Shown here one piece after another: positions 17,169 through 29,302 of a DNA stretch of 64,000 bases (positions within the stretch are counted from its first letter, which is position 1; each line of letters starts with the position of its first letter). A model generated the notes under the pieces. That model did not search any database, was not told the origin of the DNA, and was given only the letters and a program-made list of their open reading frames with translations. Origin of the DNA: a phage; sequence record NC_135729.1. One strand, written 5' to 3'. Made by a program: the position numbers and the translations under genes.

Positions 17169-17510
17169 CTACTGAAGGTCTTCAGAGTCAAGCTCAAAAA
17201 GAATCAAACTGTGCATACCTGCAGAGAGATCAACACACCCTGCAACAATAAGGGTCTGATAGTAAGGTTCAGCACCCTCGATGTCTTCGTTAAAATCTAC
17301 AACAAGGTAGTCACCTTTGTTAAAGGTGTATTTGTCCGATGTAAACGCAAAACCTGCCCAGTCCCCTACTGCAGGATCTTTATCAGTCACCTTTGTTAGC
17401 AGTAGATCTTTTTCACGAGATCTTTTAGTAAAATCGTGAATCACAACATCCTTCTCTTCAGGAGTTGGATTGCCGCACACGTAGTTAACTATATTTCTCC
17501 ACAAACTCAT
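17169..17510 (-). CDS. hypothetical protein
   Basis: 113-aa ORF. Confidence 0.4.
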   Translation of the reverse strand: MSLWRNIVNYVCGNPTPEEKDVVIHDFTKRSREKDLLLTKVTDKDPAVGDWAGFAFTSDKYTFNKGDYLVVDFNEDIEGAEPYYQTLIVAGCVDLSAGMHSLILFELDSEDLQ

Positions 17511-18877
17511 ACGTCCCCCTCTTCGGCTCTGGTTTCAAAATCTTTCCTGACAATTTTGTCTAAGTCAGGGAATGTTGTATTGTAAAACTCTACGACTCGC
17601 GGGTCAACAATAATGTCAACTTCTCTTAGTGGACGCAACAAGTTTATTCCTTGTATTGTCTTAACTCTACTCAAAGCGACATACGTCATTCCAGGAGAGA
17701 AAGCTCCGTTCTTTCCAAGATCTAGGTTGTAGCAATCTAACGTAAGTCCTTGACTTTTATGAGATGTTACGGCGTACCCAGATTTCAGAGGGAGTTGCTT
17801 GTATGACCCGATCACTACCCTCTCTATAAACTTCTCCATCTTCCTTTCTGCAATGTTGTATCTCTGAGATGGCTTATACTCGTTATTTTCCCACAACCTC
17901 TGCTCTATGTCAACCTGTGTTCCATCTTCAAGCTCTACCACCACCGCCTTGTTCTTAAATTTAACAATTGTGGCACGTGTTCCGTTAACATAATAAGGTA
18001 CTTTGTGCGTCGGGTCAACATCGTTGGCGGTTATCATAACTTTCATGCCAATTTTCAACTTCATCTCCTGCTCAACTGGCAGGGTGGAGGGAAACTTACC
18101 CTTCATTTCACCAGTGTATACCTTCTCTGGGGCGTTGATGGCATCATAGAACCTTCTGTTCACTTCCTCTGCTTGTTTGTTGGTAGCGCAAATTGTGAGA
18201 GCGTCTGTTGGTACACCGCCTTTGTAACAGCGAGCATTAAGTTCTGCTACAACCTCTTTTATGCGACGACCCTCACGAACACAGTTGAGCATTGTGGCAA
18301 ATCGAATAGACTCCTGTCGGAACTGGTCTATTAGGGCTATGTTGTGAAGGTCCAGCTCTTTCCAAGATTCGGTATAGCAACATAGGTCTGTGTGGTAGAA
18401 GTTGAAGTAGGCCTCCTTCTCCATAGAAGAGACAACAGGAGGTGCCTGGTAAAAATCGCCAAACAATATGACCTGTATGCCTCCGAAAGGTTTGTCATTT
18501 TTTCGAAGGAAGCGGAGTTTCCTATCCATCTCTATAAACTTATCAGCACGGATCATAGAGATTTCATCGATAATTAGGATGGTAAATGCCTTGCTTTTCA
18601 AAGGCTTTGCTGTTTTTGCCCTTATTGCAGTCCAGTCAGACTCCATGCTCACACCTGCTGCAAGATCGAAGGTTCGGTGTGCTGTTGCTCCATTAACGTT
18701 TAAAGCGGCTACCCCTGTCGGGGCAACCGTTATGCAAGAGTCTCCATACATTGACTGGATCATGTTGATGAGGTACGTCTTCCCACAACCTGCGGGTCCT
18801 GAAACGAAGACATTCTCCCCACTCATGATTGCAACAAGGGCAGCATCTGTGCCTACATCATACTGCCCTTTTTCCAT
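17507..18877 (-). CDS. SF1B helicase, Dda/RecD/Pif1-like
   Basis: Walker A VFVSGPAGCGKT; Ia ITVAPTGVAA; Walker B LIIDEISMI; III ILFGDFYQAPPV; V YAVTSHKSQGLTLD; VI ALSRVKT. Confidence 0.85.
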   Translation of the reverse strand: MEKGQYDVGTDAALVAIMSGENVFVSGPAGCGKTYLINMIQSMYGDSCITVAPTGVAALNVNGATAHRTFDLAAGVSMESDWTAIRAKTAKPLKSKAFTILIIDEISMIRADKFIEMDRKLRFLRKNDKPFGGIQVILFGDFYQAPPVVSSMEKEAYFNFYHTDLCCYTESWKELDLHNIALIDQFRQESIRFATMLNCVREGRRIKEVVAELNARCYKGGVPTDALTICATNKQAEEVNRRFYDAINAPEKVYTGEMKGKFPSTLPVEQEMKLKIGMKVMITANDVDPTHKVPYYVNGTRATIVKFKNKAVVVELEDGTQVDIEQRLWENNEYKPSQRYNIAERKMEKFIERVVIGSYKQLPLKSGYAVTSHKSQGLTLDCYNLDLGKNGAFSPGMTYVALSRVKTIQGINLLRPLREVDIIVDPRVVEFYNTTFPDLDKIVRKDFETRAEEGDV

Positions 18878-20082
18878 TACGCCTCCTCGTAAAGAATGTC
18901 GATAGTGTTACCGTCTCGGTCAACCACGTATTCAATCGGGTCTCCGTCCTTGCGTGCTTCCGGAGCTACCACAATCTCATAGCGGCATGCACGGCACTTA
19001 GCGCTATTGTGTTGGTATGGCACACTAACCACATCTGCAGGGTCAACCATGACAGTCATTACAGTGCCGTAGCTCTTTGCATACTCCTTGCTGGCGCAGT
19101 GTAAGCCATAGGAGCACGCAGCTTCAGGATCATCCTCTACAAAGTTACGAGGCATGGATACAAAAGCACCCTGGTATTGTGGAACTTTACCACTGTGCCA
19201 ATCCACCCACTTGCTGCCGTTAAACTGAACCCCTTTGTAGCAAATGATTCGACCATCTTCTGCAATCTGGATATCGTTGGCCTGCATAAAATCGTAGAGC
19301 ATGTTTACAGATTTTGCAGAAGGATTGCGTAGCAGGCGAACGAGGAATTTCACATAGCGGTCATCCAGGGTTCCGTCTGCATAGTCTTTCTCAATTTTCT
19401 TTGCAATGGTGGATCGCATCTCTACACCGTAGTAGTAGAGCTTACCATCTTTCATGATCAGGTTGTCTGCAAGTGTGGTGAACTCATTCTTGCGTTCCAG
19501 CCAGACAAGGATTTCACCAATTGCCTCATCATATTCCTGAACAGAGATATGGTCGAAGACTTTCTGGTAAACTTCCTCACTTTCGCTGCGGCGAATTTCA
19601 AAAATGCCTTCGTTGCAGGTGATCTGGAGGAGTTCCCCACAAATAACTACTAAAGGCTCGATGCTTCGAGTCTGTTGCTGAGACACACTGCTAACCACCT
19701 CCAGCACCGGGTCTTTGACTTCTACTAAAGGTTCTTCTGACTTGATTGCCACCCCAGTGAACCCCACACCGTGAACAACACACAGTGGGTATACCACGCC
19801 CCAACGTTTAACGGAACCTTCGCCTAAGTCTAAGATCATGGCGTACTTACCATTATCTTCCAGCCCATATCGAAATAGACGAGCCTCTTCACGGGTTTCA
19901 AAATCCTCACGGGTGTAGCAGACGCTGTCACGGTCAGGATCGAACAATTCTGGGGCACCCACTGCCAGTGTCCAGGTTGTGTCACCTTTCTCAATGGCAC
20001 ATGTGAAACCCTTCTTCTCAAGTTCTGCACGGCGGTCTCGTGCTTCTTTACGAGTTTTGAAATGTTCGTAGATGAAAATCAT
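18877..20082 (-). CDS. putative rIIB-like protein (by position next to rIIA-like gene)
   Basis: 401-aa ORF immediately downstream of the GHKL ATPase; no motif recognised, assignment by synteny only. Confidence 0.3.
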   Translation of the reverse strand: MIFIYEHFKTRKEARDRRAELEKKGFTCAIEKGDTTWTLAVGAPELFDPDRDSVCYTREDFETREEARLFRYGLEDNGKYAMILDLGEGSVKRWGVVYPLCVVHGVGFTGVAIKSEEPLVEVKDPVLEVVSSVSQQQTRSIEPLVVICGELLQITCNEGIFEIRRSESEEVYQKVFDHISVQEYDEAIGEILVWLERKNEFTTLADNLIMKDGKLYYYGVEMRSTIAKKIEKDYADGTLDDRYVKFLVRLLRNPSAKSVNMLYDFMQANDIQIAEDGRIICYKGVQFNGSKWVDWHSGKVPQYQGAFVSMPRNFVEDDPEAACSYGLHCASKEYAKSYGTVMTVMVDPADVVSVPYQHNSAKCRACRYEIVVAPEARKDGDPIEYVVDRDGNTIDILYEEA

Positions 20083-20092
20083 AGCGGTCTCC

Positions 20093-22075
20093 TTATTTGG
20101 TGTTATTCTTTGTGTCGATCAGTTCACGGTATTCAATCATAGCAGGAGTGTCCCAATATTTCAAGCCTACATGCTTCAAAAGTGGGTATTTCTTTTCCAA
20201 TCTTGCAATATAGGCCTTCCCGCATTTAACTCGGTTGGCGATTAAGATTTTGGCACGATGATTTAGCTCACTGTGCTTCCACGTGGTGTTACCTTCCCAC
20301 TTGTGGAAATGTGGCCGATAATTTCCAAAATCTTGCATGGGAATAATTTTCCCTAATTGTCTATACAGGCTGTCATAAGAAGTCTCATTTGCTGCACGGG
20401 TCAGTAAGAATTTCCAAGCATCCTCTTTCAACAGGTGCTCCACATTCTTCTCTGTAACATACTGGCAATCAGGATCAGTCCAAAGCAGACGAGATTCAGA
20501 TACCAGATACAGATCTTCACCTTCAGGAATCTGAAGTGCCGCACGCACACGGTCATAATCTTGCTGGTAGATGTTACTCATCTGCCCCAGCCAACAACTT
20601 CCACGTTGGATATCACCCTCATAAGGGATGCAGTGTTTAATCTTCCGGAACTCTGCCTTAGTAATACGCTCACGGCGGAAGTAACCATCCTTCTCAAGTT
20701 TTTTAACCCAATAGCCCGGCTCATAACGAGTTTTTGTTTCACCTTTCTTGACAGGTCGGCGAGGGAGCTCTGATAACAATTTGACCGTATCTGCAAAGAA
20801 CGGGTGGTGTGCCGCTTCTTTAAACTCTTCCACCAGATCCGTGTTACGGCAATAGAAAACGTTGCGTCCGGTGATCTCGCTTAAGTAGTTACACTTATTC
20901 CGGTTATATTTGCCGTCTCCGTCGTTAAATACAAGGTATACACCTCGTAAGAACTCCGACTTTCCGTAACGAGCATAGCCTATGCGGCCTTTATTTAAGC
21001 CGCCAGCGAAAATTTCACAATCGCCTAAGTCGCCAAGCCCTGTTTCTTCCCAACGGTTCCACATAAAGTTCTTGCCGAAGATGTGTCCGAACACTCCACT
21101 ATTCTTCATCATTTCACGTGCTTCTGCGGAGGTTTTTGCCGTCTCCAGTTCTGCAACAACTTCTGCCCCGCGAAGACGTATACCTTCTTTGACAAATGCC
21201 TCCAGGCGATCCTGGAATCCACCGTCGTCATGGCCCTCTATGGTCCATTCACGCCCAGGGTTAATATTGCAATCCCCAATAGGAATTTCCACGCAGATTG
21301 CAGGGTAATCGGTCAATGTCTCCAGGAACTTGGAGCGGTAAGGTTGGTGACCCATCACAACACGGCTCTCATCAGAACTGGTATAACCTTTCAGGATGGT
21401 CATTTTCCAGCCATCCTTCTCGTAATGATACTGTGCCTCAACCTTGTCACCTTCTAACATCTTACTGGTCATGGGATCGGTGACGATGAACGGAAACTTC
21501 GCATAGCGTAAGCACGATGCAATAGCAGTGCGATATTTCAGGACATGCTCTTTCTTAACATGGAACTGAACTTTTACCCCGTTGTGCTCTTCAGTCTTCC
21601 GCTCGCGGATCTTGGTAACGTTTGGGATACCCTGATCCAAGAACAATAGATATGTGCTTTCAATACCATTGTGCACACTGATAACATCGAAAGTGTCCAC
21701 CATGCTGAACGGAGCCTTTGAACCAACACCTTTATTGCCAACCAGAGCGTTGCTGTTGCGCTTGGTTGACTCACCGAGGTTCATGAAAGTGTTGCGGACC
21801 ATCTCTTCTGACATGCCCAATCCAACGTCCTGCACAAAGAAGTATGGTTCAAGGTCTGTAGGAGAGTGAATAATGATCGGCACATCACCCCGTCCAGACT
21901 CAACATGAGAGTCCACAGCATTGAAGATTGGTTCACGGCAGCTTGCCAGCACCTTATCTTCGTAAATCCCTTTAATGATTAGCCCAAAAGTCTCTTTGTT
22001 AAGAGAAATTGAGCCCCTGGTGACCTCCATATTTCCGGTTAGCACTGCTTTAGTTTCATTACTGTTTACAATCAT
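20093..22075 (-). CDS. rIIA: rIIA-like protein with N-terminal GHKL (HATPase_c) ATPase domain
   Basis: Bergerat-fold boxes: N-box REPIFNAVDS, G1 DVGLGMS, G2 GNKGVGSKAPF; 660 aa, comparable to T4 rIIA. Confidence 0.55.
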   Translation of the reverse strand: MIVNSNETKAVLTGNMEVTRGSISLNKETFGLIIKGIYEDKVLASCREPIFNAVDSHVESGRGDVPIIIHSPTDLEPYFFVQDVGLGMSEEMVRNTFMNLGESTKRNSNALVGNKGVGSKAPFSMVDTFDVISVHNGIESTYLLFLDQGIPNVTKIRERKTEEHNGVKVQFHVKKEHVLKYRTAIASCLRYAKFPFIVTDPMTSKMLEGDKVEAQYHYEKDGWKMTILKGYTSSDESRVVMGHQPYRSKFLETLTDYPAICVEIPIGDCNINPGREWTIEGHDDGGFQDRLEAFVKEGIRLRGAEVVAELETAKTSAEAREMMKNSGVFGHIFGKNFMWNRWEETGLGDLGDCEIFAGGLNKGRIGYARYGKSEFLRGVYLVFNDGDGKYNRNKCNYLSEITGRNVFYCRNTDLVEEFKEAAHHPFFADTVKLLSELPRRPVKKGETKTRYEPGYWVKKLEKDGYFRRERITKAEFRKIKHCIPYEGDIQRGSCWLGQMSNIYQQDYDRVRAALQIPEGEDLYLVSESRLLWTDPDCQYVTEKNVEHLLKEDAWKFLLTRAANETSYDSLYRQLGKIIPMQDFGNYRPHFHKWEGNTTWKHSELNHRAKILIANRVKCGKAYIARLEKKYPLLKHVGLKYWDTPAMIEYRELIDTKNNTK

Positions 22076-22572
22076 TTATTGCGCTCCTTGTAGTAGATAT
22101 GACTCCCGAATTGAGCTGTCCTCTGCATCTTTTTTGCCCATTTCGGTCGTACTTTGGTTGTATGGTAGTGTGTTGCTCCACCTGTTATGTCCATAGCCAT
22201 GTATGCAACATGGTTGTTATTATAGACCTTTAGAAGCATCTTTGCAAGACTTTTAGCGTGATCCCATGAATCTTTTTCTGTCACCTTAAAAGTTTTGCCG
22301 TGGTTTGTCCACGAAAACTGGTTAGGTTGGTAGACAATCTTTCTTATAGTGTCTGGGTATTTGGGGTGAGATTTCCTGTTTAGTGTGGCAAACCCTGATG
22401 CCAGCATACCCATCGTGCCATCCCCTCTAGCCTCCCTGTAGATATTGCATGCCAGAATGTTTTCCTTAGTATCTGAGGGCTTGCAAGTATGATATACTTT
22501 TTGTTTTGGTGCTGCAACAACAGGCAGCGATAAAAATGCGCTCAAAATAATAGCAAAGATCTTAATTTTCAC
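22072..22572 (-). CDS. secreted cell-wall hydrolase, SleB/Hydrolase_2 family (candidate lysin)
   Basis: signal peptide MKIKIFAIILSAFLSLPVVAAP; family signature CNIYREARGDG...ATLNRKSHPKYPDTIRKIVYQPNQFSW. Confidence 0.75.
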   Translation of the reverse strand: MKIKIFAIILSAFLSLPVVAAPKQKVYHTCKPSDTKENILACNIYREARGDGTMGMLASGFATLNRKSHPKYPDTIRKIVYQPNQFSWTNHGKTFKVTEKDSWDHAKSLAKMLLKVYNNNHVAYMAMDITGGATHYHTTKVRPKWAKKMQRTAQFGSHIYYKERNK

Positions 22573-22582
22573 AATAACTCCA

Positions 22583-22610
22583 AATAGAAAATCCCCGCCG
22601 AAGCGGGGGA
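22583..22610 (-). terminator. rho-independent terminator
   Basis: minus-strand CCCCGC-TTCG-GCGGGG hairpin followed by ATTTTCTATTT; same hairpin at 48721-48736. Confidence 0.65.
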
Positions 22611-22621
22611 GGTCTTAGAAA

Positions 22622-23002
22622 TTAATCGTAGTGTGCCAAAATCTCTCCATCGTTGCAAGTTCCCTCTACAAAGTTATGAAGATTCATGCACTCATCTTGA
22701 TAGAAGAATTTACCGCTTTTCAGCCGTAAGCCAAACAACTCCGCATCTCCACGATGGCAAGCCTCTACAAGTTCATAGATTTCATACGGCAACTCTCCGT
22801 CGTCATGGAAGAACCCAGCCTTATCGTTGACATAGATGAAGAAATAATCACTGCTATCGCAAGCGTCCAATATTTTAAACCAGATTTCATCTACATCTTT
22901 TTCTCGGATATCAATCACGCAAGTGGAGCTGCATTCGTACTCCTTCTCCGGCTCCTCGGTCAATACCACCCGGTAATTTCCCCGCTTACCTACTTTAGCC
23001 AT
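22622..23002 (-). CDS. hypothetical protein
   Basis: 126-aa ORF. Confidence 0.4.
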   Translation of the reverse strand: MAKVGKRGNYRVVLTEEPEKEYECSSTCVIDIREKDVDEIWFKILDACDSSDYFFIYVNDKAGFFHDDGELPYEIYELVEACHRGDAELFGLRLKSGKFFYQDECMNLHNFVEGTCNDGEILAHYD

Positions 23003-23011
23003 ACAACCCCC

Positions 23012-24196
23012 TTAAGCTTTAGCTAAAATGGCGCTAAACTCTTCACCAAACTCTTTTACAATCTTCATCAGGTTTGGGTACGCTTTGATCAGTTGAGCAA
23101 CGATCTTGTCACGCCCTTTACCGATAAGCAAGGCATTTCCTAAGGCGTTAGGTTTCATCATCGCCATAAAGACTGAGAATACAAAATCTCGGTTCTCGTC
23201 CTTGAAATTTTCCCAAAGGAAATCGAGGAAGTTTGCCACACAGCTAACAAGATCTTCGTCAGAGATACTTGCATTTTCCATCATATTACGAATAGCGATA
23301 CAACCTTCAGACCCAAGAATCCACAAGATGTCTGGCTGCTTAGGCCCTACGTATTCTTTGCAACCCCCTGCCATAATCCGACCGATTTCCGGTAAATTGC
23401 GTTTCTTGGTGTGGTAGGTCCAGATCTCTACCGCTGCAGTGTGACCAATAGCACCTTGCAGAAGAACACGGGCCATAGCGTCAGAAATAATACCGCTGTC
23501 AAAATCGTGCAGGATATCAGATGCAGCAACCCAAGATCGCGGTGTGGCAAAAGATGGGCAATTAATCTCAGCCATAGCCTCATAATTATCAATAGCTGAC
23601 GGAACTCTTTTCAGATACCCAATTACAGAGGAGTGCACTCCATTAAGGAATGCGTAGTCCTCAATAAACACCTCTGCATTGCTTGTAACTTCTACAATGA
23701 TAAAACGGTTAGCCAGAGGGGCTTCAAGCGCCGAAAGAACCGCACCATCTGTAGAACGGTTACCTGCAGCTACAAAAACAGAGCCCTTAGGGAATGCATA
23801 GGTGCCGCACTTGTGGTCGAGCATAATTTGCATTGCAACCTTTTGCAGGTAACTATCTGCATGAGTAAGCTCATCCAGAAATATAATTCCGCTCCAGTCC
23901 GGATCTGCAGGCCAGAATTCTGGAATTGCAAACACTGTACGTGCAGTTCCATCCGCTTCTACAGGGATAGGTAGCCCAGATAAGTCGGCAGGATCTTTAT
24001 CTGACAGTCGCACGTCAACCAGGTTGTCATCTCGCTCACCGAACATATTATCGGCGATCTGCTTCATCACCTGGCTCTTCCCCACGCCCATTGGTCCTAA
24101 AATCAGGACAGATCGGTTATGACGTTGGGCAAACTGAATGATAGCTGGCAACTCACGGACAGTGATTTGACCACTTTCAAATACGTTTCTTGACAT
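23012..24196 (-). CDS. AAA+ ATPase, MoxR-like (AAA_5)
   Basis: Walker A LILGPMGVGKSQ; Walker B IIFLDELTHA; sensor-1-like VFVAAGN; LANRFIIVEV. Confidence 0.75.
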   Translation of the reverse strand: MSRNVFESGQITVRELPAIIQFAQRHNRSVLILGPMGVGKSQVMKQIADNMFGERDDNLVDVRLSDKDPADLSGLPIPVEADGTARTVFAIPEFWPADPDWSGIIFLDELTHADSYLQKVAMQIMLDHKCGTYAFPKGSVFVAAGNRSTDGAVLSALEAPLANRFIIVEVTSNAEVFIEDYAFLNGVHSSVIGYLKRVPSAIDNYEAMAEINCPSFATPRSWVAASDILHDFDSGIISDAMARVLLQGAIGHTAAVEIWTYHTKKRNLPEIGRIMAGGCKEYVGPKQPDILWILGSEGCIAIRNMMENASISDEDLVSCVANFLDFLWENFKDENRDFVFSVFMAMMKPNALGNALLIGKGRDKIVAQLIKAYPNLMKIVKEFGEEFSAILAKA

Positions 24197-24504
24197 TAGT
24201 AAAAGTCCTCTACTTGTGTGTAAGTGTTTTCAAAGTTTTCCAAAACAGATGCCACATCGGATCTGTCAATATCGTACACAACTTCCCAGTTGTATGCAAC
24301 CCTTTCTGCTGTTGCTTCTTCAGGACTTAGCCGTCTACTGGGGTGAAAGAATGTTGGGGTACACCTTCTTAGTTGTCTTCCGGTTTTCCCATAACAATAT
24401 CTGTGGATAACTTTGTCAAAATTTAACTCTTTTTCTGCACAAAGTTCGTGTTTCTGGTATAACATGTTTATTACTCTTCTAAGCGGCATCCCTGCCACCA
24501 CCAC
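24196..24504 (-). CDS. hypothetical protein
   Basis: 102-aa ORF. Confidence 0.35.
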   Translation of the reverse strand: MVVAGMPLRRVINMLYQKHELCAEKELNFDKVIHRYCYGKTGRQLRRCTPTFFHPSRRLSPEEATAERVAYNWEVVYDIDRSDVASVLENFENTYTQVEDFY

Positions 24505-24507
24505 CTG

Positions 24508-24888
24508 CTAGAATGCAGTTCGAATCCAGACAAGGTTCTTATCTGCCCAATCATAGAGGCAAGTCATTGCGCTATTGAATTGCTCACACGGAGGATAATC
24601 TTCTTCCATCTGGCGCATAGCAGAGCCTTGTGGGTAAAGCTCCCGTGCTGCAAGCCACGCATCGTAGTCATCCACGGTATCGAAGTAGTATACAACATCC
24701 TCCAACTCAGGATCGAACTTTGAATTATCAGGATCCAGTTGTTCAGGGAACTTGGAGCGTAACTTGCCAGCCACAATGCTTGCCAACTCGCTAACATGCT
24801 TATTGTCCCACTCTACTAGTTTCCCGTCTTCAGCGATGCGTCCTAACCACTGATCATGAAGGTCAACTGTTGTCTTCCACCGGGCCAT
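24508..24888 (-). CDS. hypothetical protein
   Basis: 126-aa ORF. Confidence 0.4.
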   Translation of the reverse strand: MARWKTTVDLHDQWLGRIAEDGKLVEWDNKHVSELASIVAGKLRSKFPEQLDPDNSKFDPELEDVVYYFDTVDDYDAWLAARELYPQGSAMRQMEEDYPPCEQFNSAMTCLYDWADKNLVWIRTAF

Positions 24889-24890
24889 TA

Positions 24891-25148
24891 TCAGTCCACC
24901 TCTTCTTCTCGTTGCAGTTCAAGATACCCGTAGGTCTGGATATCTTCAAGGGTGTGGAAATCCCCATCTGCCGCTAAGGCACGAACAACTTGGCACAAAA
25001 CCTTATGAGGAACTTCATCCAGACCAAGATTCAGTGCAGGAAACACCTTATCTAAGTCAACAAAATAAACGAACTGTAGCTCACCAGCTTCAAAAGGTGT
25101 ATCTTCAATAAACATCTTCTCGGCATTAGTCAAGATCTGCACTTTCAT
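24891..25148 (-). CDS. hypothetical protein
   Basis: 85-aa ORF. Confidence 0.35.
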   Translation of the reverse strand: MKVQILTNAEKMFIEDTPFEAGELQFVYFVDLDKVFPALNLGLDEVPHKVLCQVVRALAADGDFHTLEDIQTYGYLELQREEEVD

Positions 25149-25525
25149 TATTCTGCCTCCTCTTCTTTTTCTTCGGCGTTAGTTTCAGTGCTACCCCACT
25201 CTGGAGTTTCCACCCCGATAGTAAACTCACGCACTACACGGTAATTGCCCATGAAGCGCTCCACCTCGTCAAGGCTTATGGCGAGGCCATTGGAAACCAG
25301 GTCTGCAGCACCCTCTTCTACCAGATAGTCCAGATTGGCTTCCAAAGCTTCAGGCTCGAACCCTGTCAATGCAATCAGATAACCTTCCCCTTCATCAGGG
25401 AGGACAATACAGCCCAATTGATTTTCTTTAAAAAGGCAGTGACCATCATTATTGATTGGGTGTTCATTGCAGTAAATAGCTGCACGATAAGTAACTTTAG
25501 ACATCGGTAAGGTCTCCTTAGGCAA
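25148..25525 (-). CDS. hypothetical protein
   Basis: 125-aa ORF, acidic C-terminus. Confidence 0.35.
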   Translation of the reverse strand: MPKETLPMSKVTYRAAIYCNEHPINNDGHCLFKENQLGCIVLPDEGEGYLIALTGFEPEALEANLDYLVEEGAADLVSNGLAISLDEVERFMGNYRVVREFTIGVETPEWGSTETNAEEKEEEAE

Positions 25526-25808
25526 TTGTCATTTTACATTCTTGAAATTTTAACACAAGACGGTGATTGTGTCTAGTGTCTAAAAAGATTTTTTCAACCA
25601 TCAGGCACACGGTATAACCGTCCATCTTGTTGACAACAAAATCTCCAGGATGAGGGAGGATGTCTCCCGGATTGGGGAAACATAGTCCACTCAGAAAGGC
25701 ATCGTCAGTGGTGGACTTAATAGATTTCCACACACTGTCTGCCTGAACATGTTCACCGACGTAATATACATTACCACATGCCTTCATCATAGTCAAACCC
25801 TCGCACAA
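25518..25808 (-). CDS. hypothetical protein
   Basis: 96-aa ORF. Confidence 0.35.
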   Translation of the reverse strand: MCEGLTMMKACGNVYYVGEHVQADSVWKSIKSTTDDAFLSGLCFPNPGDILPHPGDFVVNKMDGYTVCLMVEKIFLDTRHNHRLVLKFQECKMTIA

Positions 25809-26692
25809 ATTAAACTTGTATCAGTATACTTCTTTAATGGGTAAATATCCTGTCCATAGATGCAATCATTAAACACCTCATCTACCCAAAGGCTACACTT
25901 ATATCCCATCATTTCTAAAACGCCCATCTCTTCTTCGGTGAACTTATCACCGCTCTTGCAAGATGTCAATACCTCATTCTGTACTCTTGCTACCTCGAAG
26001 CGGTTATTGGCAATATCACTATTGGCAATCAAATACTCACCTAAAGGGTGTGCAGCATTAAAGATGCACAGTGGACGGTTGACGTAATAGTCTCCCGGTG
26101 TATAAAAATTGTTGAGATCCTTCACCAGAACATTCTTATCAGTCACTTCATTTATAACATCATGCATATCACACATCTTTATATGTTTGAGGATTCCATC
26201 CCCCATCACAAAATAAAAACTTGCTGAGACACTCTCGGCATAGATCTTACTAGATCCGTTGTAGTTGTATTTTACGCGAATGCTTACAGGGGTTTTGCCT
26301 GTCGCGTTAGCCATCATCCAAAGGAACGGAAGTTCAAACCTCTCCTCTGAGGAAACAAAAGGTGAAGTTGCCAGAGATCGGAAACCTCCAGAAAAGTTGA
26401 AAGTTACAGAGCCGCTCCGGCGATATGATACCGCATATTCTACTTTTATATCGACGTACCCATTGGAATAGGTGTGTCCTTCATTATCTAAATATGTCCA
26501 CTTATCAGATCCGGATACCAGCCTACGCTCAATAACCTTCATTACTATAGGAATTAGCGGGTTGGTACAAACCGATTTTGAAGTAGCTTTATCATCTAAA
26601 GCCTCGTAAATTGCAGAAAGGATGTCTCCAGCTGAAAGATTGGTTGTTATATCCTGTTGCCACCGCGTACTAAAACTGTTAAGATTTGCCAT
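25793..26692 (-). CDS. hypothetical protein (first gene of leftward operon)
   Basis: 299-aa ORF; GGAG RBS; directly downstream of the divergent promoter. Confidence 0.45.
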   Translation of the reverse strand: MANLNSFSTRWQQDITTNLSAGDILSAIYEALDDKATSKSVCTNPLIPIVMKVIERRLVSGSDKWTYLDNEGHTYSNGYVDIKVEYAVSYRRSGSVTFNFSGGFRSLATSPFVSSEERFELPFLWMMANATGKTPVSIRVKYNYNGSSKIYAESVSASFYFVMGDGILKHIKMCDMHDVINEVTDKNVLVKDLNNFYTPGDYYVNRPLCIFNAAHPLGEYLIANSDIANNRFEVARVQNEVLTSCKSGDKFTEEEMGVLEMMGYKCSLWVDEVFNDCIYGQDIYPLKKYTDTSLICARV

Positions 26693-26728
26693 GAGTGCTC
26701 CTATGTTAGTTTTCTTTCGAATGGGTGC

Positions 26729-26757
26729 ACTATATCGGAGATTTAGAGTAAAGTCAA
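26729..26757 (-). promoter_or_regulatory. sigma70-like promoter (leftward)
   Basis: minus strand TTGACT (plus 26752-26757) - 17 nt - TATAGT (plus 26729-26734). Confidence 0.45.
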
Positions 26758-26770
26758 CACGTTTTTGATG

Positions 26771-26799
26771 TTGACATCTGTTGAGACAATTGATAAGAT
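26771..26799 (+). promoter_or_regulatory. sigma70-like promoter (rightward)
   Basis: TTGACA (26771-26776) - 17 nt - TAAGAT (26794-26799); its -35 and the leftward -35 are the two arms of the inverted repeat GTCAACA-N9-TGTTGAC (26753-26776). Confidence 0.5.
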
Positions 26800-26830
26800 T
26801 TCTTCACTTACAGAGCACGAGAGACAACTC

Positions 26831-27808
26831 ATGAATCTTGAAAAATATTATACACCAGAAGAGTTAGAGCGCCTGCTCAAAAAATATAGACGCAAACAGA
26901 ATAATGCACGGAAACGAGATATAGAGTTCGACCTGTCGTGGGAAGAATACCTACTATTTGGTAAAAAACTTTTAGGGGAAGGGGTATGCGACTACACCCT
27001 TATACCTTTCGACATGCACACAGATGAAAACGGACTGGGAAATCCTTTCTATCCATCTCTGGAGCGGATAGATGATGAAGGTCCTTACGCAATTGATAAT
27101 TGTTGTGTGGTAGGGTTGAGGTGCAACGCTCTGAAGGACTGTCTGGTAGATAAAAAGACTGCAATATTGATAAAAGACAAAACTGATCGAAAAATTGTCC
27201 AGCAGATGATGCTCCACCTGAGCGAAGAGCGTATGGAGAAATTGAAAGGTGATTATACTTTCGAAGATTTCATCTTGCAATACGGGACAGAAGAAGATAA
27301 ACTAGCACTTTTTGACGAAGAGGAAGAAGATATGTCACCAATGCAGGACTTTAAAAATTTCATGGCTGATCGTGCAGCCAACAAACACATTTCAGATATC
27401 GTAAACGAAACTGTGACAGAAGAAATTGAAGAACAGAACTCTGAAGAGGAAAAAGAGCCTCAGGAGGTCGAAGAGGAGATTGCAGAAGAGGTTCCTGCAC
27501 TGCCTGATGATGTTGAGGTTGCTAAGGCTTACACTTTCTATTGTCAAACGTTCTACGATGCAGGTATGAAAGTTGATCTGTCGTTCAGCCAATTTAAGAG
27601 TTCATATATTCGCAAATGCTGTGCTTTAACTGGTGAACGTCTCGGAGCTGGACTTAAACCGCTGTTGGTGACCGACTGGAATAAAGGTTTCACTAAAGGA
27701 AACTTTATGGTAGTATCTCCAATTATGGAAAAAGCCATGACGGATCTTATGAAGACCACTCGCATGACAATGACTGAGTTGGCAGGTATTTTCAAACACG
27801 TTAAATAA
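26831..27808 (+). CDS. protein with two degenerate HNH-like (DRID-type) modules and an acidic linker
   Basis: N-module PSLERIDDEGPYAIDNCCVVGLRCNALKD and C-module KPLLVTDWNKGFTKGNFMVVSPIMEKAM both resemble [28 protein letters not shown] of the HNH endonuclease at 4306-4929; acidic stretch EEEEDMSP...EEIEEQNSEEEKEPQEVEEE; ATG at 26831 preferred over the TTG at 26765 that lies inside the promoter. Confidence 0.4.
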   Translation: MNLEKYYTPEELERLLKKYRRKQNNARKRDIEFDLSWEEYLLFGKKLLGEGVCDYTLIPFDMHTDENGLGNPFYPSLERIDDEGPYAIDNCCVVGLRCNALKDCLVDKKTAILIKDKTDRKIVQQMMLHLSEERMEKLKGDYTFEDFILQYGTEEDKLALFDEEEEDMSPMQDFKNFMADRAANKHISDIVNETVTEEIEEQNSEEEKEPQEVEEEIAEEVPALPDDVEVAKAYTFYCQTFYDAGMKVDLSFSQFKSSYIRKCCALTGERLGAGLKPLLVTDWNKGFTKGNFMVVSPIMEKAMTDLMKTTRMTMTELAGIFKHVK

Positions 27809-27820
27809 TGACAGGGGCCA

Positions 27821-29302
27821 ATGGCCCCTTCTGGAGTTTTAATGGATAGCAGAAGTTCAGAAATCGTTGCCTCACAGAAAGATGATGCCCTGAGAATGTT
27901 GCAGGCTGCACGTATGTATCTCCTTGAAAAGCTGCCGTTTTATGGCACACTGCTGTCAGGGTTGCAGTTCGTAGAAAACCACACATGGTGCTCCACCATG
28001 GCAACCGACCATAAACGCATCTATTACAGCCCTGAGTTCATTATGGGATTGGCTGATGAACGCAAGGCTATTCTTAAGGCCTCTCTAACTGACAAGCAGT
28101 TTGAGATGGCTGAGGTTTTCTATTCCCCCAAATCTGTGAAAGAGGTGGCCTTTCTTCTGTCGCATGAGGTGGGGCATATTATCTGTGATCACCTGGTCCG
28201 TGGTAAAAGCTTTGAGCCGGAACTGTTCAATATTGCTTGTGATCACGTTATCAACACAGGCCTTGTGGTTGACTTTAGCAAACCTCCTTGTGTTTTCTTC
28301 TCGAAGGGGAAAAGCACTACGTTCGTGAAAGGTAAGCCTTTTGGCTTCTTAGCCAGCTGCTACTGCGACATGAAGTTTCATGGATGGATTGCTGAGAACG
28401 TTTATGCAGTTCTTGATAAGCAAAGAGATCAGAATAACGGTAAAAGTAAGAGCGGTAAAGGTGAGAACTCTCAAGAAGATAAGCGACAAACCGATGATCA
28501 CATGAGTGGTAACGGTGGCACCAGTGATGATCTTGGAAAGGCTATGGGGTATGATCAGCCACAACCTGTAATCAGTCAATCTGATAAAGATCAGGCCATG
28601 CAGGACTCTGGTGACATGCTGGAGGCAGCAATGCAAGCTTCCGGAGGCCGTTGCCCTGAGGCGGTTCGTGAGTTTGTCAAGAATAGAGGTAAGCCTGTAA
28701 TTAATTATATAGACATCATCAAGCAACGCATGTTGTCTAAACGAAAGGCTGAACTGACCTACAGAAAACCTGGTCGCCGATCTGGGTCTTTGACCAGCAC
28801 AATGCGAAAAGTTGGGGCTATAAACAAGAACCAGCACGTTATTGTTCCTGGTCGTAATCCGGAAAACACCATAGATATTGTGGTAGCTTTAGACGTTTCT
28901 GGCTCGATCTCTCAAAGAACTTTAAAGAAAATGTTCAATGAAATCACCGGATTGTGCAATCTGTATAAAGAGTTTAAGGTTACAATGTTCTGTTGGTCAA
29001 CTGAAGTCGGAGAGGTTAAAGTATACACTCGCGGCAACATAGACGAGATGATCAACTATGAGGTACACTCAACATGGGGCACAACAGCTGCTTGCGTGTT
29101 CGAGTATCTGGATGCCAACATACCGAATGCAAAAGATGTCATCGTCCTGACCGACCTATACTTTGAGCATAACTTTGAACAAAAGGCTGTTGACAACAAG
29201 TGGAAAAAGTACGATACTTTATGGGTTCTCACCGAAGGGTATAATAAAAATTATATCCCTAGCTTTGGGAAAACTGTGGAATTAATCGAGTACGCTAAGT
29301 AA
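27821..29302 (+). CDS. putative metallopeptidase (HExxH) fused to vWA domain (COG3864/DUF2201-like, MoxR partner type)
   Basis: HExxH LLSHEVGHIICDH; vWA MIDAS motif VVALDVSGSIS (DxSxS); 493 aa. Confidence 0.7.
   Translation: MAPSGVLMDSRSSEIVASQKDDALRMLQAARMYLLEKLPFYGTLLSGLQFVENHTWCSTMATDHKRIYYSPEFIMGLADERKAILKASLTDKQFEMAEVFYSPKSVKEVAFLLSHEVGHIICDHLVRGKSFEPELFNIACDHVINTGLVVDFSKPPCVFFSKGKSTTFVKGKPFGFLASCYCDMKFHGWIAENVYAVLDKQRDQNNGKSKSGKGENSQEDKRQTDDHMSGNGGTSDDLGKAMGYDQPQPVISQSDKDQAMQDSGDMLEAAMQASGGRCPEAVREFVKNRGKPVINYIDIIKQRMLSKRKAELTYRKPGRRSGSLTSTMRKVGAINKNQHVIVPGRNPENTIDIVVALDVSGSISQRTLKKMFNEITGLCNLYKEFKVTMFCWSTEVGEVKVYTRGNIDEMINYEVHSTWGTTAACVFEYLDANIPNAKDVIVLTDLYFEHNFEQKAVDNKWKKYDTLWVLTEGYNKNYIPSFGKTVELIEYAK

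Follow-up and report, generated by a model that had tools for sequence, protein, structure and literature searches.

The window analysed here is a 64,000-nucleotide stretch of phage DNA (sequence record NC_135729.1). It belongs to an rV5-like Vequintavirus, and the 8-kb stretch round the two genes under study is 97-98% identical to many coliphages (rV5_ev168, navn, slur16). A preliminary description, made from the sequence alone, had read an open reading frame (ORF) at 23012-24196 on the minus strand as a MoxR-type AAA+ ATPase and one at 27821-29302 on the plus strand as a protein combining an HExxH metallopeptidase-like domain with a vWA domain that bears a MIDAS (an adhesion site dependent on a metal ion). 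Both ORFs are present, and our analysis confirms this observation and supports in part the interpretation that was placed on it. The two genes already carry the labels 'MoxR ATPase' and 'metallopeptidase' in GenBank records of related phages. The features of the pair are listed below, with their orthologues in phage N4 and in the Vequintavirus Bas54.

23012-24196, minus strand: MoxR-class AAA+ ATPase of 394 amino acids, orthologue of Bas54_0063 and N4 gp24
24074-24097, minus strand: Walker A motif GPMGVGKS (residues 34-41), from motif reading
23870-23887, minus strand: Walker B motif IIFLDE (residues 104-109), from motif reading
ATPase, minus strand: signature residues N145 (sensor 1, AAGNR), R163 (Arg finger, 'PLANRF') and R219 (sensor 2, 'TPRSW'), from alignment
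ATPase, minus strand: helix-2 insert, about residues 64-100
27821-29302, plus strand: zincin peptidase (DUF2201_N)-disordered linker-vWA (DUF2201) protein, orthologue of Bas54_0055 and N4 gp25
27842, plus strand: probable ATG start of this protein, giving 486 amino acids; GGAG lies 6 nt upstream, and the same start is annotated in navn and Bas53/54
28163-28177, plus strand: HExxH motif (HEVGH, residues 115-119), with a third His at residue 124 (HEVGHIICDH)
vWA-peptidase, plus strand: linker, about residues 205-295
28892-28906, plus strand: MIDAS motif DxSxS (DVSGS, residues 358-362), completed by T421 and D445

Identity of the two proteins

Single-sequence searches with the window ATPase gave only P-loop-level matches, and its assignment to a clade therefore needed a family profile and a structure model. 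No Pfam family scored above its curated cut-off. The best matches were AAA_14, AAA_5 and bpMoxR at 17-20 bits (AAA_5 17.9 bits against a cut-off of 22, bpMoxR 16.8 bits against 27), and AAA_3 was not matched. In the PDB only the P-loop regions of ClpB and ClpC were found, and searches of NCBIfam and PADLOC returned trivial matches only. A database search placed the ATPase in a graded family in which close Vequintavirinae are followed by proteins of ~360 amino acids at ~35% identity (E ~1e-45). These relatives carry AAA_3 (the MoxR family), AAA_5 and sometimes bpMoxR. Both AAA_3 and AAA_5 are matched at E<1e-3 by 30 of the 62 aligned family members, and bpMoxR by 13 of them at the same threshold; the family profile itself matches Midasin (E 4e-11).

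Among solved structures, the AlphaFold model of the ATPase (mean predicted local distance difference test score, pLDDT, of 85.9) is matched best by NorQ, CbbQ and the MoxR protein CHU_0153. In this model alone, a helix-2-insert hairpin (residues 74-80/83-89) is seen between β2 (58-62) and β3 (101-107), and a short pre-sensor-1 hairpin (128-133) lies ahead of β4 (137-144). Residues G36, G38, K39, S40, D107, E108, N145, R163 and R219 are invariant in the 62 homologues. The region of the helix-2 insert is among the best-conserved stretches of the protein, with R62, L63, D70, G73, A89, P91 and P95 also invariant. Among the phage copies the Walker B motif is kept in 96/96 and GK[ST] in 94/96. As for the remaining motifs, we take N145 to be sensor 1, R163 to belong to an 'ALLDRF'-type Arg finger and R219 to a 'SPRA'-type sensor 2. 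Because the family profile, the AAA_3/AAA_5 relatives, the NorQ/CbbQ-like model with its hairpins and the invariant residues agree, we accept the ORF at 23012-24196 as a diverged MoxR-class AAA+ ATPase rather than a member of an unrelated AAA+ clade.

The partner was recognized directly. DUF2201_N was matched with E 8e-29 (101.5 bits against a cut-off of 23.2) and DUF2201 (VWA-like) with E 3e-11, also above cut-off. The profile matches that the preliminary description expected were thus obtained for the vWA-peptidase, and for the ATPase the AAA_5 score stayed below the cut-off. H115, E116, H119, H124, D141, D358, S360, S362, T421 and D445 are invariant in 57 homologues, and HExxHxxxxH and DxSxS are kept in all 81 distinct phage proteins. 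The protein carries both an HExxHxxxxH zincin site and a full MIDAS site, as had been proposed, and is predicted to have peptidase activity. Its model (pLDDT 85) consists of a helical N-domain, a disordered linker rich in acidic, Gly and Ser residues (residues 212-235 below 50 pLDDT) and a C-terminal vWA fold. A long conserved β2-β3 hairpin in the modelled vWA domain (residues 384-402) is a candidate for a 'finger' that might enter a pore. A single-sequence search of the PDB with the vWA-peptidase gave no match.

PHROG 1314 names the DUF2201_N plus vWA family 'HNH endonuclease', a label found in many RefSeq and GenBank phage records (N4-like phages, RaK2, Atu_ph07). No HNH-type Pfam family (HNH/Endonuclease_7) was matched in the vWA-peptidase, and since the family lacks an HNH domain we regard this name as a propagated misannotation. 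A GC-rich hairpin (GGGGCC-AAT-GGCCCC, 27813-27829) between the vWA gene and the Srd-like gene before it covers the first in-frame ATG (27821), and it could be an attenuator or a translation-control element.

Linkage of the genes, their phenotypes in Bas54 and their surroundings

In ~115 phage loci the ATPase and the vWA-peptidase occur together almost without exception, mostly as adjacent genes with the ATPase first. The vWA-peptidase lies within 10 kb in 71 of the 80 viral loci seeded with the ATPase alignment, and eight of the nine exceptions end at a contig edge. Conversely, the ATPase is nearby in 35/37 loci seeded with the vWA-peptidase. A tblastn search of 50,697 phage genomes gave 811 records with the ATPase and 671 with the partner, from the same taxa: Vequintavirinae, N4-like podoviruses and the jumbo phages RaK2, PA5oct, Atu_ph07, SCTP-2 and phage G. 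On this gene-neighbourhood evidence the two are very likely to be a functional MoxR/vWA couple, as the preliminary description supposed, and co-occurrence in related genomes is near-perfect.

The order ATPase-then-vWA on one strand is found in 79 loci, with a gap of <500 bp in 65 of these. The genes are on opposite strands, 3-5 kb apart, in 30 loci, and the window has this divergent arrangement, with 3.6 kb between the genes. Because the divergent loci are all Vequintavirinae-like and the genes are co-directional elsewhere, the split layout is a lineage-specific rearrangement of an ancestral two-gene operon. Related Cronobacter CR9/Pectobacterium-type phages (four loci) retain adjacent genes. 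The cassette is also present on gammaproteobacterial chromosomes (Sulfurivermis and relatives, five loci). There the AAA_5 and DUF2201 genes are consistently found near HtpG, Hsp15 and thioredoxin, and in some genomes near ferrochelatase or peroxiredoxin, a hint that the cellular cassette may act in proteostasis or redox stress. A profile scan of genome contigs with the ATPase alignment found four loci, all in metagenome-assembled genomes.

Genetic evidence comes from a HIDEN-SEQ preprint (bioRxiv 10.1101/2025.11.20.689424; 2025), which reports transposon sequencing of Bas54 (phage MaxBurger). The window ATPase is identical to bas54_0063 at 390/393 residues (99%) and the window vWA-peptidase to bas54_0055 at 476/486 (98%), with the same gene order, so the Bas54 phenotypes transfer directly to the window. 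Both genes were non-essential on Escherichia coli K-12, with insertions at 60/64 TA sites in bas54_0063 and at 81/86 in bas54_0055. On E. coli CFE311, a host that carries the two-gene defence system DS-28, bas54_0063 was depleted to zero (log2 fold change -7.23, q=0) and bas54_0055 was significantly depleted too (-2.20, q=0.009). Based on plaque assays of knock-out phage on K-12, the authors state at Fig. 4e that bas54_0063 is specifically required to overcome cloned DS-28. In the block 0042-0067, bas54_0055 is the sole gene besides the ATPase that was significantly depleted on CFE311. All genes between the two, as well as the flanking bas54_0054 and 0064-0067, were unaffected; these data cover the anti-sigma gene (-0.08), the 'fucosyltransferase' (+0.43), the small ORFs (+0.2 to +0.8), the cell-wall hydrolase, rIIA and rIIB.

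The helicase gene beside rIIB (17507-18877, minus strand) has as its orthologue bas54_0068, which was non-essential on K-12 and depleted on CFE311 (-6.32, q=0); it is another conditionally essential gene of the early block and is not discussed in the preprint. In Extended Data Table 8 (sheets S6/S7) the sheet 'resampling_K-12_vs_CFE303' contains the CFE311 command line and data, identical to the next sheet, apparently a mistake in labelling or a duplication. Neither the ATPase nor the vWA-peptidase is mentioned in two further papers on the essentiality of phage genes (one on CRISPRi-ART, the other a transposon study), and literature searches on DUF2201, COG3864, PF13203 and MoxR in rV5/Vequintavirus found no functional account.

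The region between the two operons, and the genes that lead away from it, are as follows.

26693-26830: intergenic region with back-to-back sigma70-like promoters, from a sequence scan
26757-26752 (-35) and 26734-26729 (-10), minus strand: promoter TTGACT-17-TATAGT, from a sequence scan
26771-26776 (-35) and 26794-26799 (-10), plus strand: promoter TTGACA-17-TAAGAT, from a sequence scan
26753-26775: palindrome GTCAAC-N11-GTTGAC, whose arms hold both -35 boxes
Minus strand, outward from the intergenic region at 26.7 kb: 299-amino acid protein, five small ORFs, the ATPase, a 126-amino acid ORF, a SleB-type cell-wall hydrolase, rIIA, rIIB and the helicase
Plus strand, outward from the same region: Srd-like 'anti-sigma factor' of 347/325 amino acids, the vWA-peptidase, then small ORFs

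Divergent sigma70-like promoters are thus found at 26.7 kb, in agreement with the back-to-back hub described earlier. Across the region as a whole the number of promoters is not above chance (22 found against 16 ± 4 expected). Yet diverged Vequintavirinae lineages, in which the proteins are just 37-65% identical and the intergenic DNA is otherwise unalignable, still have a perfect TTGACA upstream of the Srd-like/vWA operon, followed 17 nt downstream by a -10-like hexamer. This conservation supports early transcription by host RNA polymerase. The plus promoter falls inside the longer ORF that begins at TTG 26765, and ATG 26831 is for this reason the likeliest start of the first plus-operon gene. 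The plus-operon ORFs of the preliminary description are real, with their probable starts at ATG 26831 and, for the vWA gene, ATG 27842. A GTCAAC...GTTGAC arrangement similar to the palindrome is present in a lineage (four loci) with a 72%-identical ATPase and a 63-65%-identical Srd-like protein, and the palindrome could be an operator for a regulator.

The block from the ATPase through rIIA and rIIB to the helicase (18877-24196) has the same order as N4 gp24/25...gp33 (rIIA)-gp34 (rIIB)-gp37 (helicase). This shared gene order suggests an old early/middle module common to Schitoviridae and Vequintavirinae. Only the ATPase and the vWA-peptidase are shared beyond Vequintavirinae; the small ORFs, the 299-amino acid protein and the Srd-like gene are confined to close relatives. 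The preliminary description had allowed that the intervening small ORFs and an 'HNH-like' first gene might belong to the module. They do not: besides their narrow distribution, their Bas54 orthologues have no phenotype on the host where the ATPase is needed.

The Srd-like protein (347 amino acids, 26765-27808) has no Pfam match, HNH-type families included. Its PHROG matches are to Srd, 'decoy of sigma70' and endonuclease VII-like proteins, and it reads 'PSLERID' at the place expected for the HNH catalytic His, as judged by eye without alignment to a reference endonuclease VII. Several records, and PHROG 13164, give the small ORF at 24196-24504 (minus strand; 102, more likely 89, amino acids) the name 'ATPase' or 'MoxR ATPase'. 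Its stop codon and the start of the ATPase gene overlap (TAATG), an arrangement that points to translational coupling of the two. We rejected it as a part of the ATPase itself: it lacks a P-loop, only close relatives have it, and its Bas54 orthologue has no CFE311 phenotype. In related phages the 299-amino acid protein (25793-26692, minus strand) goes under the name 'putative alpha 1-3 fucosyltransferase'. Neither Pfam nor NCBIfam gives a match, and the protein falls in a PHROG of unknown function, so this name seems to lack support. Sixteen 'Campylobacter phage' records (MG065644-MG065690, host listed as Campylobacter jejuni) are 96-98% identical to the window phage over the region and are probably mislabelled or contaminant genomes.

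Possible role of the pair

We give about even odds to the best explanation that we can offer, namely that the pair is an early, ATP-driven, MIDAS-targeted machine for remodelling and cleaving proteins that is used for counter-defence. A two-component MoxR/vWA machine would be made early in infection from promoters read by host RNA polymerase. By analogy with NorQ/NorD and CbbQ/CbbO, we infer a physical complex in which a hexameric ring of the ATPase docks the vWA domain of one partner at its pore via the conserved helix-2 insert. The MIDAS metal site would grip an acidic residue on a target protein, and ATP hydrolysis would twist or stretch the partner and so remodel the target. As the N-terminal specificity domain is an intact HExxH zinc peptidase, the remodelled target would probably be cleaved as well. 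The use of the machine in this lineage would be counter-defence, at least for the ATPase, since the genes are dispensable on K-12 and the ATPase is needed on the DS-28 host.

Several observations weigh against this explanation. Depletion of the peptidase gene on CFE311 is ~30-fold weaker than that of the ATPase gene. In all, 27 genes are significant on that host, several near -2, and the peptidase effect is therefore not tied to DS-28. The preprint names just the ATPase and bas54_0140, a 99-amino acid protein encoded outside the window (-5.48 on CFE311), as anti-DS-28, with the vWA-peptidase and the mechanism outside its discussion. In one related genome (contig IMGVR_UViG_3300045988_163358) the two genes are at least 37 kb apart. 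The zincin subfamily of the N-domain is marked only by weak M48, HtpX and minigluzincin similarity round the HExxH. Finally, a factor dedicated to anti-defence would not usually be found among the core genes of N4-like phages, and this status suggests a more general role. The weaker peptidase phenotype may reflect a different partner for the ATPase, or a defeat of DS-28 by remodelling and not by cleavage.

Some of these points would equally be expected if the ATPase and the vWA-peptidase were uncoupled in Vequintavirinae, with the ATPase countering DS-28 alone or with, for example, Bas54_0140, and the peptidase having a minor separate role. The different operons, the wide separation in the one genome, the unequal effects on CFE311 and the authors' second DS-28 gene all fit such an arrangement. 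Nevertheless, in all sampled Vequintavirinae-like genomes both genes are retained and their catalytic motifs are intact, the genes of every other lineage are as a rule adjacent, the MoxR ATPases characterized so far work through a vWA partner, and the peptidase gene is the only other one of its block to respond on CFE311; we consider uncoupling the less probable case, though the strongest of the competitors. Another alternative is a chaperone for maturation or metal insertion, of the NorQD/CbbQO/CoxDE/chelatase kind, that acts on an enzyme of phage or host to activate or repair it; its HExxH would be metal-handling or regulatory and the DS-28 phenotype indirect. NorQ and CbbQ are the closest solved structures, the N-domain/linker/vWA layout is like that of NorD, and in bacteria the cassette has HtpG, Hsp15 and thioredoxin as neighbours and, in some genomes, ferrochelatase close by. 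A chaperone of this kind is nonetheless unlikely, given that the catalytic Glu of the HExxH is invariant in all 81 distinct copies, a pattern to be expected of an active peptidase, and that no conserved gene for a client enzyme stands beside the pair in phages.

The proposal of Iyer et al. (2021) for the homologous jumbo-phage pair is that of a virion-assembly chaperone with a processing protease, by analogy with the tail-development pair p618/p892 of ATV. The pair does belong to the core genes of large virulent phages, and some virion proteins of roseophage RPP1 are encoded near the gp24/25 homologues. An essential role in assembly is contradicted by the Bas54 data, in which both genes take insertions at ~94% of TA sites on K-12 and the prohead protease, scaffold and capsid genes are essential. 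Together with the existence of that separate prohead protease, and with the position of the genes in an early/middle module with sigma70-type promoters beside rIIA/B and replication genes, this leaves the assembly role with a slim chance. The slimmest falls to a phage-borne vWA-MoxR ternary 'conflict' system acting in defence or exclusion against competing elements. This was the lead of the preliminary description, and bpMoxR is present among the weak Pfam matches and in a minority of the homologues. It is opposed by the sub-threshold bpMoxR score of the window ATPase, by the lack of a VMAP, β-propeller or FtsH third component or of an effector conserved next to the pair, by the PADLOC results (none for the vWA protein and, for the ATPase, sub-significant matches to unrelated models, best E 5.6e-4), and by an experimental phenotype of counter-defence rather than defence. 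The conflict role that the preliminary description raised is backed by experiment for the ATPase in the 99%-identical phage, and membership of the ternary systems is unsupported.

If the counter-defence machine is extended beyond this lineage, the pair would be a general phage counter-immunity device, in which the MIDAS captures defence proteins (DS-28 and probably others), the AAA+ ring pries them apart and the zincin cuts them, from N4-like podoviruses through rV5-like myoviruses to jumbo phages. We hold this wider proposal only tentatively, as a minority prospect. Few unexplained gene couples of large virulent phages are conserved as widely: the pair is core in N4-like phages and Vequintavirinae and present in many jumbo phages. 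Were it an ATP-driven, MIDAS-guided protease or remodeller of host defence proteins, this would be the first function for N4 gp24/gp25 and would define a new mechanistic class of anti-defence factor, one that is enzymatic and energy-dependent as opposed to a stoichiometric inhibitor. The broad host range of the rV5-like phages that serve in therapy and biocontrol would also become easier to explain. For the near term the window itself is of modest value, the key experiment in genetics having already been made with a 99%-identical phage.

Comparison with known systems

The mechanistic template is provided by NorQ/NorD, in which a hexameric ring takes one partner, a vWA 'finger' in the pore touches the helix-2 inserts, acidic residues of the target are held by the MIDAS, and rotation driven by ATP stretches the linker that joins the vWA domain to the N-terminal one. 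NorQ/NorD and CbbQ/CbbO include the best structural matches of the window ATPase. They share with the window pair a MoxR protein with a helix-2 insert (a hexamer there) and a partner with an N-domain-linker-vWA layout and a MIDAS. In contrast to the window protein, the N-domains of their partners are not peptidases, and their targets are respiratory or carbon-fixation enzymes. Identity is 15-20%, and the finger of the window protein is a candidate.

The vWA-MoxR ternary conflict systems (Kaur, Burroughs, Iyer and Aravind, 2020) have a MoxR and vWA core and a conflict context in common with the window pair. They differ in possessing a third component (VMAP, β-propeller or FtsH) and an effector array, whereas the window pair is phage-encoded and acts against defence.

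The closest counterparts are in other phages. N4 gp24 (AAA ATPase) and gp25 (vWFA/pfam13203) belong to a set of 14 core genes shared by 25 N4-like phages, and are among the middle transcripts. These are the same two families in the order ATPase-then-vWA, middle-expressed and with rIIA, rIIB and the helicase downstream as in the window. The proteins differ in sequence from those of the window (~20-27% identity), and the genes are adjacent in N4-like phages whereas in the window they are split by a divergent promoter. A MoxR plus metallopeptidase-vWA 'chaperone-cochaperone pair' was described in group 2.2 jumbo phages by Iyer et al. (2021; Viruses 13:63), who proposed a role in virion assembly with proteolytic processing. 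The domain architecture is the same, and Atu_ph07, RaK2 and PA5oct are matched by both window queries; the difference lies in the assembly role proposed there, which as an essential function the Bas54 data oppose in Vequintavirinae. The pair had been put forward in the preliminary description as a candidate for an undescribed system. It is instead the same pair as N4 gp24/gp25 and as the MoxR plus peptidase-vWA pair of the jumbo phages, here in the divergent layout of the Vequintavirinae.

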